Counted from the stretch's first letter, positions 835-58,823 are shown. The stretch: 64,000 nucleotides of DNA from Octopus vulgaris (GCA_951406725.2 OX597830.1:66278001-66342000), one strand, 5' to 3'. Numbers and translations: made by a program. Notes: a model not told the origin generated them from the sequence alone.

Positions 835-868
835 TTTCTGCTGAAGTGCATAGGCTCGAAATATCAAA
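835..868 (+). ncRNA. Hammerhead-like motif of the CTGTNGA family (decayed)
   Basis: ttt-CTGCTGA-a-gtgc(atag)gctc-GAAA-ta-TC-aaa, with the same downstream tail (gacttttccattcttcctgagc...). Confidence 0.45.
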
Positions 869-989
869 GACTTTTCCATTCTTCCTGAGCATCAAGCTGA
901 TAAGGTTGCTTGTTGTTCCCCCACCTTGTCTTTGTCTTTTGATTTCTGTAAATTTGAACTAGATATATGTGTATGTCTCTGTCTATATG

Positions 990-1216
990 TATTTCTTTAC
1001 TACCCACAAGGGGCTAAACACAGAGGGGACAAACAAGAACAGACAAATGGATTAAGTCGATTACATCGACCCCAGTGCGTAACTGGTACTTAATTTATCG
1101 ACCCTGAAAGGATAAAAGGCAAAGTCGACCTCGACGGAATTTGAACTCAGAACGTAACGGCAGACGGAATACAGCTACACATTTCGCCCGGCGTGCTAAC
1201 GTTTCTGCCAGCTCGT
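990..1216 (-). mobile_element. SINE family B
   Basis: Reverse complement of 2645-2877. Confidence 0.9.
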
Positions 1217-1640
1217 CTCTGTCTATATATATGTATGTTGGTGTGTGTATGTGCATATATATATAGAAATATTCTTTTACTCTTATATATGTATCAGGGA
1301 TGTGCCATATACGTAGGCAGTGCCTATCTTGAATAAAATAGATTGATAGCAACATTTTCCTCTCATGGCAAAATATGCACCTAATTCAATAAAAAATAAA
1401 ATAAAAGGTTACTATGCATAAAATGCAAAATGTTTTATTTTTCTGTAGATTAGGTAGGCATAATTCACCCCTGCTTTTCAATCTCAGTATTTAAGCTACA
1501 CATAGTACTGCTGTAGTACATGTGCTGGGTACATTTCAACAACTCTGTTTTCTTTATGTGTAATAAAGGCAGAAATAGATCTGCCTTCAACTCAGTCGGG
1601 CAACTGTGTTTCATTTATGTTTTGTGTGCTGATATATATA

Positions 1641-2051
1641 CTCTTTTACTCTTTTACTTGTTTCAGTCATTTGACTGCGGCCATGCTGGAGCACCGCCTT
1701 TAGTTGAGCAAATCGATCCCGGGACTTATTCTTTGTAAGCCCAGTACTTATTCTATCGGTATTTTTTTGCCGAACCGCTAAGTGATGGGGACGTAAACAC
1801 ACCAGCATCGGTTGTCAAGCAATGCTAGTGGGACAAACACAGACACACAAACATACACACACATATATACATATATATACATACATACGACAGGCTTCTT
1901 TCAGTTTTCGTCTACCAAATCCACTCACAAGGCATTGGTCGGCCCGGGGCTATAGCAGAAGACACTTGCCCAAGGTGCCATGCAGTGGGACTGAACCCTG
2001 AACCATGTGGTTGGTTAGCAAGCTACTTACCACACAGCCACTCCTGCGCCT
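1641..2051 (-). mobile_element. SINE family A (tRNA-like head, CORE-like motif, internal microsatellite, CR1-like tail)
   Basis: Head aggcgcaggagtggctgtgtggtaag...gggttcagtccc, CORE-like gcaccttgggcaagt, tail cagcatggccgcagtcaaatgactgaaac-(aagtaaaagag)n. More than 12 copies in the window. Confidence 0.9.
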
Positions 2052-2107
2052 ATACATATATATATATATATATATATATATATATATTTTATTTATTTTA
2101 TAGAAGG

Positions 2108-2158
2108 AGCTTCTACAGGACTAAAACTGTTTCATTCAAATGAAATCATCAGGAAGCT
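2108..2158 (-). ncRNA. Type-I hammerhead ribozyme (left arm of the palindrome)
   Basis: Reverse complement of 2155-2205 with one loop substitution. Confidence 0.75.
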
Positions 2159-2205
2159 TCCTGATGATTTCATTTGAATGAAACAGTTCTAGTCCTGTAG
2201 AAGCT
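2155..2205 (+). ncRNA. Type-I hammerhead ribozyme with canonical core (right arm of a palindrome)
   Basis: agcttc-CTGATGA-t-ttca(tt)tgaa-t-GAAA-cag(ttctagtc)ctg-TA-gaagct; GUA cleavage triplet. Confidence 0.8.
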
Positions 2206-2644
2206 CCTTCTATAAAATAAATTAATTTACTCTGCTATGTATTGAGTACCTTATTTACTGTGGTTAACCCCGACTCAACCCGGGACCTACATATATATAT
2301 ATATATATATATATATATATATATATATATATATCATTTCTTTTTCCTTCTTCAACTGCCCATCATAAGTCGCCATTGACTGCTTTTGTTCAGTGATCAT
2401 CTGTGGCAGGCTTGCACATGGTCTACAAACGCCTGCTCTCGATCTGCAGCTGACATCTGCTGTTGGTGCAGCTACTTGACACAAACAGAGAAGTGATGCC
2501 TCTCGTGTGACCTTTTGTGTTCTCTCTGTTGTTTACTATCATCATCGTTATTGCATTTAATTCCGATTTTCATGCTGGCATGGGCTGGATGGTTCTACAG
2601 GAACTATGAGTTGGCGGCTGGATAGTTCAACAAGAACTGATGAA

Positions 2645-55473: not shown

Positions 55474-55700
55474 TTAACCCTTTAGTGTTCAGATTATTCT
55501 ATCAAACATAATGCTTATTGATTCCCATTGATTTGAATTAATCATGCATTATGTCATAGCTTCAAGATCTTGATGGTGTAATTACTTAATGTAGAATAAC
55601 ATTGTAGGGTAGGTGTGAGAGCCTGGATCTGATCAGTTTGAACATAAAACAGATTAGCTATTTTGGCCGGATATGGCCGGTTTAAATACTAAAGGGTTAA
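55474..55700. mobile_element. piggyBac-like MITE (opposite orientation)
   Basis: TTAA TSD and CCCTTTAG TIR; reverse complement of 44743-44969. Confidence 0.85.
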
Positions 55701-56103
55701 ATTTTCCTTTTTTTGCCAGAGTGTAATAATATAAATATGAAATTTAGTTACATAGGTATACTCTTTTATTCTTTTACTTGTTTCAGTTATTCGACTGTGG
55801 CCATGCTGGAGTGCTGCCTTTAGTCAAACAAATCAACTCCGGGACTTATTCTTTGTAAGCCTAGTACTCATTCTATCAATCTCTTTTGCTGAACCGTTAA
55901 GTTATGGGGACGTAAACACCCCAACATCGGTTGTCAAGTGATGGTGGGTGGGACAAATACCCAAACATTTACATACATCCATATATATATATATTTATAT
56001 ATATGTATGTATATATATATATTTATATATTGTGACCGTGTGTGCACCGTTGGCGATTTTTTTTTCCTCTGTCTTCCCTTCTCTGGATCTTTCCTTGTCT
56101 TAT

Positions 56104-56138
56104 GTTTCCGACAAAGAGCTCTGCTCGAAACGTTAAGC
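56104..56138 (+). ncRNA. Third copy of the CCGACGA-family hammerhead-like motif
   Basis: gttt-CCGACAA-a-gagc(tct)gctc-GAAA-cg-TT-aagc, inside a (TA)n-flanked element at 56030-56233. Confidence 0.55.
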
Positions 56139-57005
56139 CCTCCTTTCCTTCTTTCCTGAGTGTCCAATAATACTATATTTGTTCCACGTCCTCGCGTTGT
56201 TGTGTTTTTTTGTGCTTTCTTGTTTGGATTAACTATATGTATATATATATATATATATATATATATATATATATATATATATATATATATATATATATAT
56301 ATATATATATATAACACACACACACACACACACATATATATACTCTTGGGTTGACCAAAACCTGAGTGGATTTGGTAGATGGAAACTGAAAGAAGCTTAT
56401 CCTATATGTCTGTCTGTGTGTGTGTGTGTGTGTCTTTGTGCCTGTGTTTGTCACCCCATCATCGCTTGACAACCAGTGCTGGTGTGTTTACACCCCCATA
56501 GTTTAGCAGTTTGCCAAAGAGCTCAATAAAATAAGTCCGGGGATTGAACTGTTCAACAAAAACACTTCAAGGCTGTGCCCCAGCATAGCCACAGTCAAAT
56601 GACGGAAAGAAAAAAAGCAACAAAAGAATATAATACACACATAAACACAGCAAATTCCTGTAATAATGGACAAAGAAATAACAGTTAAAAGAATACCTTC
56701 TTGTCCTGGTCCCTTTATGCTTTGAGTATATATCTGTTGGAATCAAGGCACAAGAGAAATTAATGTGTACCAAGTAATTAATATTTACATAAAAGGTTAA
56801 TTGCCTAAAATACTGTAGCAATTAATAATTATACTTTTTATACATTTAGTATGCATACACTTCTGTCTAAGCGTATGATTTTGATGCATACAAATGTGTA
56901 CTATAAATTATTGTGGGAGTATTAGCATCCTTATGTATTATACGAAAAAAGGGTGGATTTGTTAGTTTTATTACAATTGCTGTATAAAATGCATTGAACT
57001 GATTC

Positions 57006-57450
57006 AGGCGCAGGAGAGGCTGTGTGGTAAGTAGCTTGTCTACCAACCACATGGTTCCAGGTTCAGTCCCACTGCGTGGCACCTTGGGCAAGTGTCTTCT
57101 ACTATAGCCTCGGGCCGACCAAAGCCTTGTGAGTGGATTTGGTAGACGGAAACTGAAAGAAGCACGTCGTATATATGTATATATATATATATATATATAT
57201 ATATATATATATATATATATATGCGTGTGTGTGTTTGTGTGTCTGTGTTTGTCCTCCTAGCATTGCTTGACAACCGATGCTGGTGTGTTTATGTCCCCGT
57301 TACTTAGCGGTTCGGCAAAAGAGACCAATAGAATAAGTACTGGGCTTACAAAAGAATAAGTCCCAGGGTCGAGTTGCTCGATTAAAGGCGGTGTTCCAGC
57401 ATGGCCGCAGTCAAATGACTGAAACAAGTAAAAAGAGTAAAAAAAGAGAG
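57006..57450 (+). mobile_element. SINE family A
   Basis: Full-length homologue. Confidence 0.9.
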
Positions 57451-57977
57451 TATATATCCCAAGTGAAATATGTACCCTAAATGCAAACTAAAATAGATTT
57501 AGAAATAACCCTGATCTTCACTTGCGTAGGTTGCAAAAGTGCAGCGACTCCAAAGTCAATATAAAAATCAAACATTCATATTTTTTCATGAAAAAACAAT
57601 GTGATTCATACATGAATAAATATAGTATGTGTGTCTGTGTGTGTGTTAGATTGTGTGTGTATATATATATATTATATGTAAAGGAATTAGAAACGGAAAG
57701 TACTTGGTGCAGTATTTAGGAACATGAATAAGAATAACTTGAATGAATTCTCTGATAATTTTTTCCTGCTTCGGTAATTAGATGTTTACAAATTATTAAA
57801 TACATTTAACGATTTTTAAGCATCTAATTATTAAAGTGGAAAAAAAAATTGATCAGAGAAGTCATTCTCATGTGTGTGTGTATATATATATATATATATA
57901 TATATATATATATTTATATATGATAGATTGTTAGTCACTACACACGTTGTTTTTCTCTCCTTGTTTTTTCTGTGTCC

Positions 57978-58013
57978 CTTTCTGTAGAAGAGCATAGGCT
58001 CGAAACGTAAAAG
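57978..58013 (+). ncRNA. Hammerhead-like motif of the CTGTNGA family
   Basis: cttt-CTGTAGA-a-gagc(atag)gctc-GAAA-cg-TA-aaag, inside a (TA)n-flanked element at ~57920-58107. Confidence 0.55.
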
Positions 58014-58823
58014 ACTTTTTCTATTCCTGAGCGTTATACTAATACATCTGTTGTTTTGTACACCATCTGTCTTCATATTCTGTTTTTTTTTTTCTTAAAC
58101 TCTCCCTATATATAATATATATATATATATATATATATATATAAAATATATAATATATATATATAAATTATATGTATATATATATTATATGTATATATAT
58201 ATATATTATATGTATATAATTTGTATATATATATTATATATATATATTATATGTATATATATATATATACATACATATAATGTAATATATACACATATAT
58301 AATATATATATATATATGTATATGTGTAGTATATATACATATATAATATATATATATGCACATCATTATCATCATCATCCTCATTTAATGTGTTTCTCAT
58401 GCTGGCATGGGTTGCACAGCTTGGCAAGAGCTGAGAAGCCAGAGGACTGTGCCAAGCTCTGTGTCTGCTTTGGCAAGGTTTCTGTGGCTGGGTGCCCTTT
58501 CTAATGTCAGTTGCTTTACAGAATGCACTGGGACTGGGTGCTTTTCATTCATGATGCCAGTACCAGCATTGAGGTCACCGAGTATCTTTCAAGACAAAGG
58601 TACCACCACACATTGGGGGAAATGGCTTCGTGTCAGGTTAGGAGAGATTAAACTATGGCAAGAGGGACGGAAACAGATGTTTTGCTGAAGAGGAGACACA
58701 TGGCTATCACTTTTGAAGGAGAGAGAAAGTGGGTGAGAGAGTTGGTGGAGAAGATGTGTGATTAATTAAACAGAACGCATTACATTTGATAGTTTAATGT
58801 GAATGCTAAAGGGTTAAATAATA

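Follow-up and report, generated by a model that had tools for sequence, protein, structure and literature searches.

Hammerhead-bearing ends of several Penelope-like elements in a 64-kb stretch of the Octopus vulgaris genome

The stretch of Octopus vulgaris DNA considered here (64,000 nt, GCA_951406725.2 OX597830.1:66278001-66342000; hereafter, the window) carries hammerhead-type ribozyme sequence at all 18 coordinates named in an earlier, sequence-only reading, along with an open reading frame (ORF) at 41577-43028 that, as that reading had proposed, encodes a reverse transcriptase (RT) and a GIY-YIG nuclease. The sites fall into ten families rather than the roughly eight first claimed: A (four sites), B (three), C and D (two each), E, F, G and H (one each), I (two arms), and an orphan at 19289, of whose unit no second copy was found in 205 loci. 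Six of the ten families (A, B, C, F, G and I, accounting for 13 of the 18 sites) are the ends of RT/GIY-YIG elements, i.e., Penelope-like elements (PLEs), of three clade types. The class is already known, and the claim of a new set of mini-retroelements is not upheld; what is new is a candidate tRNA-like promoter variant of a PLE end, together with a testable account of the short copies. The features of the window are listed below by coordinates and strand; L numbers, here and later, denote genomic loci.

788..960, plus strand: family A unit of an older subfamily; core at 838 with a stem II mismatch; not beside (TA)n
2088..2290, plus strand: family I (Hydra-type by motif) head-to-head insertion; inverted arm 2088-2156, sense arm and tail to 2290; cores at 2161 (plus) and 2152 (minus); predicted cut after 2199; (TA)n at each end; centre at a point that in long copies follows the TATA box by 29 nt
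17040..17235, plus strand: old family D unit, 78-88% identical to other copies; core at 17109 intact, with long stem II and palindromic stem III
19001..19174, plus strand: family A unit with a mutated GAAA box, its 3' end at (TA)21
19217..19443, minus strand: orphan hammerhead-like unit; core at 19357; stem I imperfect
19456..19610, minus strand: family C (Hydra-type by motif) unit; core at 19593; (TA)n at both ends
21030..21140, plus strand: family D fragment; first core box missing
31745..31896, plus strand: damaged family A unit; 3' end at (TA)18
31933..32120, minus strand: family B unit, subfamily B1; minimal hammerhead intact, core at 32060; 3' end at (TA)18
32302..32492, minus strand: family B unit; GAAA box mutated
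35889..36126, minus strand: family E unit; U3-A8 core at 35973; inverted tail piece
36243..36400, plus strand: family H unit; GAAA box mutated; the copy in locus L088 passes the hammerhead descriptor
41577..43028, plus strand: family F RT and GIY-YIG ORF, 5'-truncated; residues 291-775 of a 775-residue frame; CX4CxxC linker; CxxC...H...H in the nuclease
43029..43731, plus strand: family F 3' untranslated region (UTR) and pseudo-long terminal repeat (pseudo-LTR); CCAAT-like boxes, TATA-like site at 43452-43460, initiator-like site at about 43484
43523-43567, plus strand: family F hammerhead, intact; predicted cut after 43562; tail ends at (TA)15
44123..44534, minus strand: head-to-head insertion of family G (probably Poseidon-type); core at 44217 on one arm and a 34-nt tail on the other
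44112-44122 and 44535-44545: 11-nt target duplication of the family G insertion, a copy without the tRNA-like head
46776..46879, plus strand: family C insertion; tail piece in inverse orientation at 46776-46811, followed by a hammerhead truncated at the core
56031..56233, plus strand: subfamily B2 unit of family B; G8 mutated; a (TA)n tract on either side
57921..58106, plus strand: family A unit; minimal hammerhead intact, core at 57982, predicted cut after 58009; between (TA)n tracts

Motifs were sought with a strict type-I hammerhead descriptor that permits the core variants U4C, A6 and U3-A8, at a score cut-off of at least 11; a version lacking the extra base before stem II missed every named site. 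Seven sites in the window pass (cores 2161, 17109, 43528 and 57982 on the plus strand; 2152, 32060 and 35973 on the minus strand), whereas 300 dinucleotide shuffles of the window gave 0.33-0.46 on average and never more than 3. By eye, four others are near-intact, namely 838 (stem II mismatch), 19593 on the minus strand (2-bp stem II), 44217 on the minus strand (stem I mismatch) and 46812 (stem I missing its 5' strand); the remaining seven (19058, 19357 on the minus strand, 21080, 31800, 32419, 36251 and 56104) are damaged. At a cut-off lower than that used for the window, the descriptor is passed by 23 of 29 genomic copies in A, 26 of 29 in B, 28 of 29 in C, 29 of 29 in I, 9 of 29 in D, and 2 of 29 in G, whose set was chosen for the window's stem I variant. 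Stem sequences differ among families while pairing is kept, and compensatory pairs can be seen by eye in stem II of family E and stem I of family H. The short, often palindromic stem III described earlier is found in the families other than I, which has a 4-bp hairpin. No hammerhead family was among the 150 of 315 Rfam matches listed for the window, those listed being miRNA-like noise.

If these motifs were chance matches in repeat-rich DNA, a reading to which we give practically no credence, it would be no surprise that 11 of the 18 sites fail the strict descriptor or that single-strand folding energy is unremarkable for six of seven validly placed motifs, although the latter is expected for minimal hammerheads. 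This reading is refuted by the shuffles, by the genomic copies (with 23-29 of 29 passing in A, B, C and I, and stems that vary between families yet pair) and by a wider sample: in forty 10-kb stretches at round coordinates (400 kb) of the 2.80-Gb, 227-contig genome, 35 motifs passed the strict descriptor, and 15 shuffles yielded 1-6. The window motifs are real, the remaining named sites are damaged copies, and self-cleavage of the window motifs is predicted.

Adjacency to (TA)n, which had been ascribed to most of the units, is a property of families A, B, C, F and I and not of G. Within the window, 15 of the 18 sites lie no more than 210 nt from a (TA)6 tract against a background of 30%, a comparison in which the cut-off was set post hoc and the sites are not independent. 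In the genome, the 3' end abuts (TA)4 in 18 of 29 copies of A, 27 of 29 of B, 28 of 29 of C and 27 of 29 of I (background, about 4%), and all 30 family F copies likewise abut such a tract; within 120 nt of (TA)4, by comparison, are 4 of 29 copies of G and 8 of 29 of D (background, 14-16%). The sites at 17105 and 44178, and that at 835 in family A, are accordingly exceptions. Units of different families are often stacked on one (TA)n tract (window 31745-32530; L121, L124, L185, L200).

The ORF at 41577-43028 matches Pfam RVT_1 and GIY-YIG and has 673 relatives, and the same 483 residues are encoded by all 88 candidates scored, of 29,021. It is one 5'-truncated copy of a very young family, F, whose full frame has 775 residues and of which 30 loci are 99.5-100% identical in DNA. 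Its Cys linker and CCHH nuclease motif are the marks of the Neptune group, the hammerhead lies about 500 nt 3' of the stop codon, and tandems have a unit of 4271 nt. The 3' ends of 30 copies divide between two internal TA-like tracts about 26 nt apart, with 14 copies stopping at each, and the remaining two read into the next tandem unit; because these two copies run on, the (AT)7 tract is element-encoded. One locus (L204:5149-6510) shows an upstream ORF of 429 residues from its ATG, with no Pfam match; its overlap with the RT frame (6420-8744) is 90 nt long, in the -1 frame, and falls at seven consecutive T, where a frameshift is likely. Contigs from runs presumed to be RNA cover F and the body of G, the G head having been passed over as a repeat, and are uninformative on ends, strand and circles. 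Proteins like that of 41577-43028 had been proposed to drive the whole set; this one is the parent of F (the 43523 motif) and of F only, in that the family A parent is just 24-35% identical to it and the other parents come from other clades.

Coding parents were also reached for the remaining five of the six families. In family A, three of the first 29 copies extend more than 50 nt beyond the unit, and a search with the extension yielded 30 loci, of which seven match the window ORF by tblastn, six of them upstream on the same strand; RT and nuclease remnants with the above identity to F lie about 960 nt before the hammerhead (L191-L196). For B, tblastn detected RT and nuclease remnants in four of 13 fetched loci (L282, L280, L274, L271). 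In family C, an AT-rich 3' UTR that spans about 1.3 kb and contains (TA)n is preceded by a nuclease end in two of four fetched loci (L267, L270), and family I has ORF and hammerhead on one strand in L376 and L377, with nuclease pieces in six of 12 fetched loci. The first motif behind the nuclease is a type I hammerhead in F, A, B and I, and likewise in G. Inverted arms occur in C, I, G and E, and a tandem layout in F; the tail is one-sided. Long and short copies share alleles in A and C, with no column separating them. A nuclease in L212, tried as the family C parent, was rejected because it lies downstream of C and has its own hammerhead. With a PLE ORF reached upstream in each of the six walked families, there is no support for assigning them to a separate non-autonomous class. 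The earlier reading had left a choice between retrozyme-like RNAs and truncated PLEs, and of these the PLE origin survives, whereas an independent retrozyme-like origin fails in every one of the six.

Judged by their motifs, F, A and B would be Neptune-type, with Nematis remaining an alternative: the linker and CCHH are present in A, and B is placed with the Neptune group from the 41-86% identity of its pieces to A. Families I and C appear to be Hydra-type, in that L376 (family I) has a CxCX5C linker, no CCHH, and CxxC and CxH flanking conserved E and N, which are Hydra motifs, and C has the same except for Phe in place of the second Cys in the single copy examined. Long 3' UTRs in I (L364, L371, L359), A (L162-L187) and B (L240-L262) are mosaics of TG/TA, CT/CA and CA repeats, such that microsatellite-like DNA is carried by the elements themselves.

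Family G differs in its parent and in its front end. Its nuclease stop codon lies about 24 nt before the head of the unit in L415, with the same 3' end in L214 and L450; the nuclease is 81% identical to an Octopus sinensis protein with PF26215, a domain accompanying F-type ORFs, and gave no Pfam match to GIY-YIG. Relatives of G (P0121 and P0122, not a G copy itself) have no Cys linker before the nuclease, by which G would be of Penelope/Poseidon type. Directly behind the ORF, the head is a 75-nt tRNA-like module with A and B boxes, which pass a strict pattern in six of 34 loci against a fraction of 0.0003 of random 80-mers. A tRNA match for the head was absent from Rfam, and relaxed ARAGORN gave 167 hits in 16 loci, too permissive to inform. 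By eye, 22 of 28 head-bearing loci start at the 5' end of the head, three start inside it, and three run into the ORF. Whole head-bearing insertions lie inside 11-13-nt duplications (L389, L391, L393, L408, L411, L412), and the headless window copy likewise lies inside a target duplication. That copy is interrupted at approximately 44263-44475 by a foreign insert with short inverted ends and CCCTAA repeats, by eye resembling a miniature inverted-repeat transposable element. In L074 and L198, the tRNA-like head and (AAT)n tract of G are joined to a different body, one that has no hammerhead. We had entertained G as a stand-alone short interspersed element (SINE), since an early search gave no ORF or shared upstream DNA, until wider protein queries found the nuclease; a PLE remnant upstream of G in L449 was discarded as the parent, being another element separated by the end of a long interspersed element (LINE). 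Mostly among titles and the starts of abstracts, with Repbase and Dfam outside the search, we found no report of a tRNA-like module in a PLE pseudo-LTR or of start-anchored leader copies.

Short copies tend to begin not at random but at sites that are initiator-like, tRNA-like or at a TATA spacing. The sample comprises 7-26 copies per family, all met incidentally (those of A and B in loci fetched for other families), and positions such as -69 are counted from the first base of the hammerhead core. In A, 11 of 26 copies start at -70 to -67, on a TCAGTC of the long copies; in B, six of 19 start at -83 to -81, on a TCATTC of the long copies (ten of 19 when the range is extended down to -75); in C, four of seven start at -18 to -8; and in I, four of nine arms start at -6, 29 nt behind the TATAAA of long copies. 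We take TCAGTC and TCATTC to match the initiator consensus. The simplest common cause of the clustering, that at the G head included, would be that these are RNA 5' ends; the starts so predicted are -69 in A, -83 in B, about -17 in C, -6 in I, the head in G, and window position 43484 in F. The 3' ends fall at either of two fixed points about 25-70 nt apart, and many insertions consist of two head-to-head arms.

Ordinary 5' truncation would account for the staggered 5' ends seen in every family walked; under it, priming would always take place in the 3' pseudo-LTR of a full transcript, and the clusters would reflect polymerase pausing or microhomology just upstream of the hammerhead. The simple repeats in long 3' UTRs could halt the enzyme, and single minimal hammerheads have been read as truncated PLEs before (PMC4209133). 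We nevertheless consider this reading unlikely, since in four unrelated families the clusters lie away from simple repeats and coincide instead with TCAGTC, with TCATTC, with a point 29 nt past TATAAA, and with the 5' end of a tRNA-like module. The proposal of extreme 5' truncation in the sequence-only reading was right about origin and leaves this clustering unexplained.

The palindromes of family I are similarly instructive. Its exact motif matches number 5213, of which 1564 have and 3649 do not have the base of the palindromic centre, and among 100 matches listed, 34 of 34 arm pairs share a haplotype, over five haplotypes. The palindrome has therefore been remade at the same point from different templates, and its centre is a property of the template, not one inherited accident. 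Three other ideas were set aside. A fixed non-autonomous palindrome (40 of 40 best hits had the centre) was an effect of query bias, given the 3649 matches lacking the centre base; 18 of 30 centre-less loci carry the TATA region. A cap-derived extra G is unsupported: a G precedes the start in seven of 12 short I loci, most of which are explained by the inverted arm. Two RNA templates per insertion would produce discordant arms, which were seen in only two of 30 cases (L294 and L308, whose arms carry different alleles of one polymorphic site). For rotifer Penelope elements, self-priming on an antisense template has been put forward as the origin of head-to-head palindromes; their palindromic junctions were read in this manner, and their pseudo-LTRs contain TATA and initiator-like motifs, noted in both directions (PMC3846280). 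The same might hold here. The sharing of alleles between arms is what a one-template fold-back predicts; however, fold-back alone leaves unexplained the unequal 3' arm lengths ending at two fixed points, as well as single-arm copies that start at the same 5' base (L354), and we find it quite improbable.

The explanation that we favor, and regard as reasonably probable, is that the units are hammerhead end repeats of several coding PLEs and that most of the short ones are front-end cDNA copies running from the predicted start through the hammerhead to the tail. Transcription would begin inside the pseudo-LTR, and as a result the region in which reverse transcription starts would lie near both the 5' and the 3' end of a tandem transcript. 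The nuclease would nick both target strands, in (TA)n for the Neptune- and Hydra-type families and in AT-rich DNA for the Poseidon-type, with either of the two start points available to each nick for priming. When the 5'-proximal site is used, the product would be 140-210 nt long (300-400 nt in G) and would run off the RNA at its first base; use of the 3' site would yield the rarer long copies. Two leader products could then join head to head, in family I via their self-complementary first four bases. In F, both start points are (UA)-rich RNA tracts, and priming is likely to involve pairing with nicked (TA)n. Short copies of I, and likely of A, B and C, would lose upstream promoter parts and be inert on arrival, with G copies retaining their A and B boxes; the predicted hammerhead cut defines neither insertion end. 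An anole PLE has been shown in vitro to begin reverse transcription at a pair of internal sites, by which the tail is set, to cut each target strand and extend it, and to insert with no requirement for cleavage by the hammerhead (PMC11167929).

Several observations, in addition to the unremarkable folding energies, weigh against this account of front-end copying. The start clusters rest on small samples of 7-26 copies per family, and the initiator motifs were recognized only after the clusters had been seen. Many copies of A and of B have their 5' end downstream of the cluster, in some cases at TA-like microhomology, and in family F no short copy beginning at the predicted start was found in the loci searched. 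Subfamily B1 differs from all 22 long B copies at six columns, and none of 25 B1 heads extends upstream; the long B copies were picked with a B2 query, with only 40 of 1148 candidates scored. Families D, E and H and the 19289 unit are without an ORF link: no parent ORF was found within 1.5 kb in the D loci, and E, H and 19289 were not walked upstream. Moreover, the anole enzyme initiates without target homology, unlike what we infer for F (PMC11167929).

Because G retains internal boxes and B1 shares no alleles with long copies, self-propagation is possible for both, and some short units (G, which is SINE-like in its A and B boxes; B1; perhaps D, E or H) may be non-autonomous elements that propagate themselves using PLE enzymes. 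The frequency of the boxes in G over random 80-mers, the whole head-bearing G insertions inside 11-13-nt duplications, and the want of a long B1 copy in the sample agree with this. Arguing against it are the three loci in which G continues into the nuclease ORF, by which its origin is not independent, the missing Rfam tRNA match, the manner in which the long B copies were chosen, and the lack of head-to-tail arrays of these units in the window. On balance we hold this alternative to be doubtful.

Motif density in the window is ordinary (seven in 64 kb). In the 400-kb sample, 20 stretches have at least one motif, and seven motifs are in one tandem array; extrapolation gives about 2.2 x 10^5 intact motifs (bootstrap 1.2-3.4 x 10^5; 1.8 x 10^5 without the array), in support of the earlier suggestion that these elements may form a large component of the genome. 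Leader-only copying would likely account for the roughly 200,000 extrapolated motifs. The elements are probably under-annotated in octopus; the main text of one recent octopus repeat annotation, the part that was searched, does not contain 'hammerhead' or 'ribozyme'. At least 12 further hammerhead families absent from the window, several with U3-A8 cores or long stem II, occur in L062-L100, and L061:2287-4530 is a true retrozyme-type array, with head-to-head units of 353-359 nt and seven canonical-looking hammerheads. A broader proposition is that PLE enzymes routinely copy the leader of their own transcript, thereby generating some 2 x 10^5 motifs, and that G leader copies, keeping their promoter, constitute a self-propagating Penelope-dependent SINE born from a Poseidon-type parent with a tRNA-like pseudo-LTR promoter; taken as a whole, we offer this tentatively, as a possibility that we lean against.

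The origin of head-to-head PLE copies and the excess of solo end repeats over full ones are open questions in the field, and both reduce to the RNA start site of each family. Family F, with at least 88 identical proteins and copies more than 99.5% alike, offers ready natural material for what would be the first biochemical study of a Neptune-type enzyme that targets (TA)n, and is suited to asking whether priming pairs the target with the element's own UA tracts. Given the extrapolated motif number and the simple-repeat 3' UTRs, these elements would also shape the microsatellite landscape.

Elsewhere in the window, 3' remnants of LINE-type ORFs lie at 21540-21774, resembling by eye the ORF ends in L381 and L384, and at 61385-61888, with no Pfam match; a tandem repeat of 40 bp x 12.5 copies, 97% alike, occupies 61938-62438.

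Minimal hammerheads have been described in the pseudo-LTRs of endonuclease-bearing (EN+) PLEs, as have dispersed minimal hammerheads interpreted as truncated PLE ends, the U3-A8 variant and activity as dimers (Cervera and de la Pena 2014, PMC4209133). The octopus motifs resemble these in being type I, with a tiny palindromic stem III, an extra base before stem II, the U3-A8 variant, many families and mostly single motifs. They differ in abundance, with about 2,000-9,000 motifs in the genomes of that study against 1.2-3.4 x 10^5 extrapolated here by a different descriptor, and in their cores, U4C and A6U being the norm in window families A, B, C and F; the clustering of start sites shown here was not found in the portion of that paper drawn upon. 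The Neptune and Hydra clades target (TA)n (Craig et al. 2021, PMC8557442), as do F and A with their Cys linker and CCHH and I and C with their Hydra-type nuclease motifs; G, whose relatives are without the linker, does not favor (TA)n, in keeping with Penelope/Poseidon, and inverted arms with a one-sided tail are likewise shared with the clades of that study. Hydra elements are less than 3 kb there, whereas here the 3' UTRs alone reach 1.3-3 kb of simple-repeat mosaic. With the anole Poseidon element PAc (Frangieh et al. 2024, PMC11167929), the octopus families would have in common two internal initiation sites, cutting and extension of both strands, and a hammerhead cut that is not at the insertion ends; PAc initiates without target homology, whereas F ends at TA-like tracts of its own RNA, and the leader-only copies proposed here were not found discussed in the part of that report drawn upon. 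Retrozymes have been described as PLE derivatives (bioRxiv 10.64898/2026.07.22.740005), and animal non-LTR retrozymes form head-to-tail arrays with canonical hammerheads and circular RNAs (PMC7229834; bioRxiv 10.64898/2026.07.22.740005). The window, in which no head-to-tail array of 170-400-nt units was found, shares with these the short non-coding hammerhead units related to PLE pseudo-LTRs; in contrast to retrozymes, its units are single or head to head and, in six families, have coding parents.

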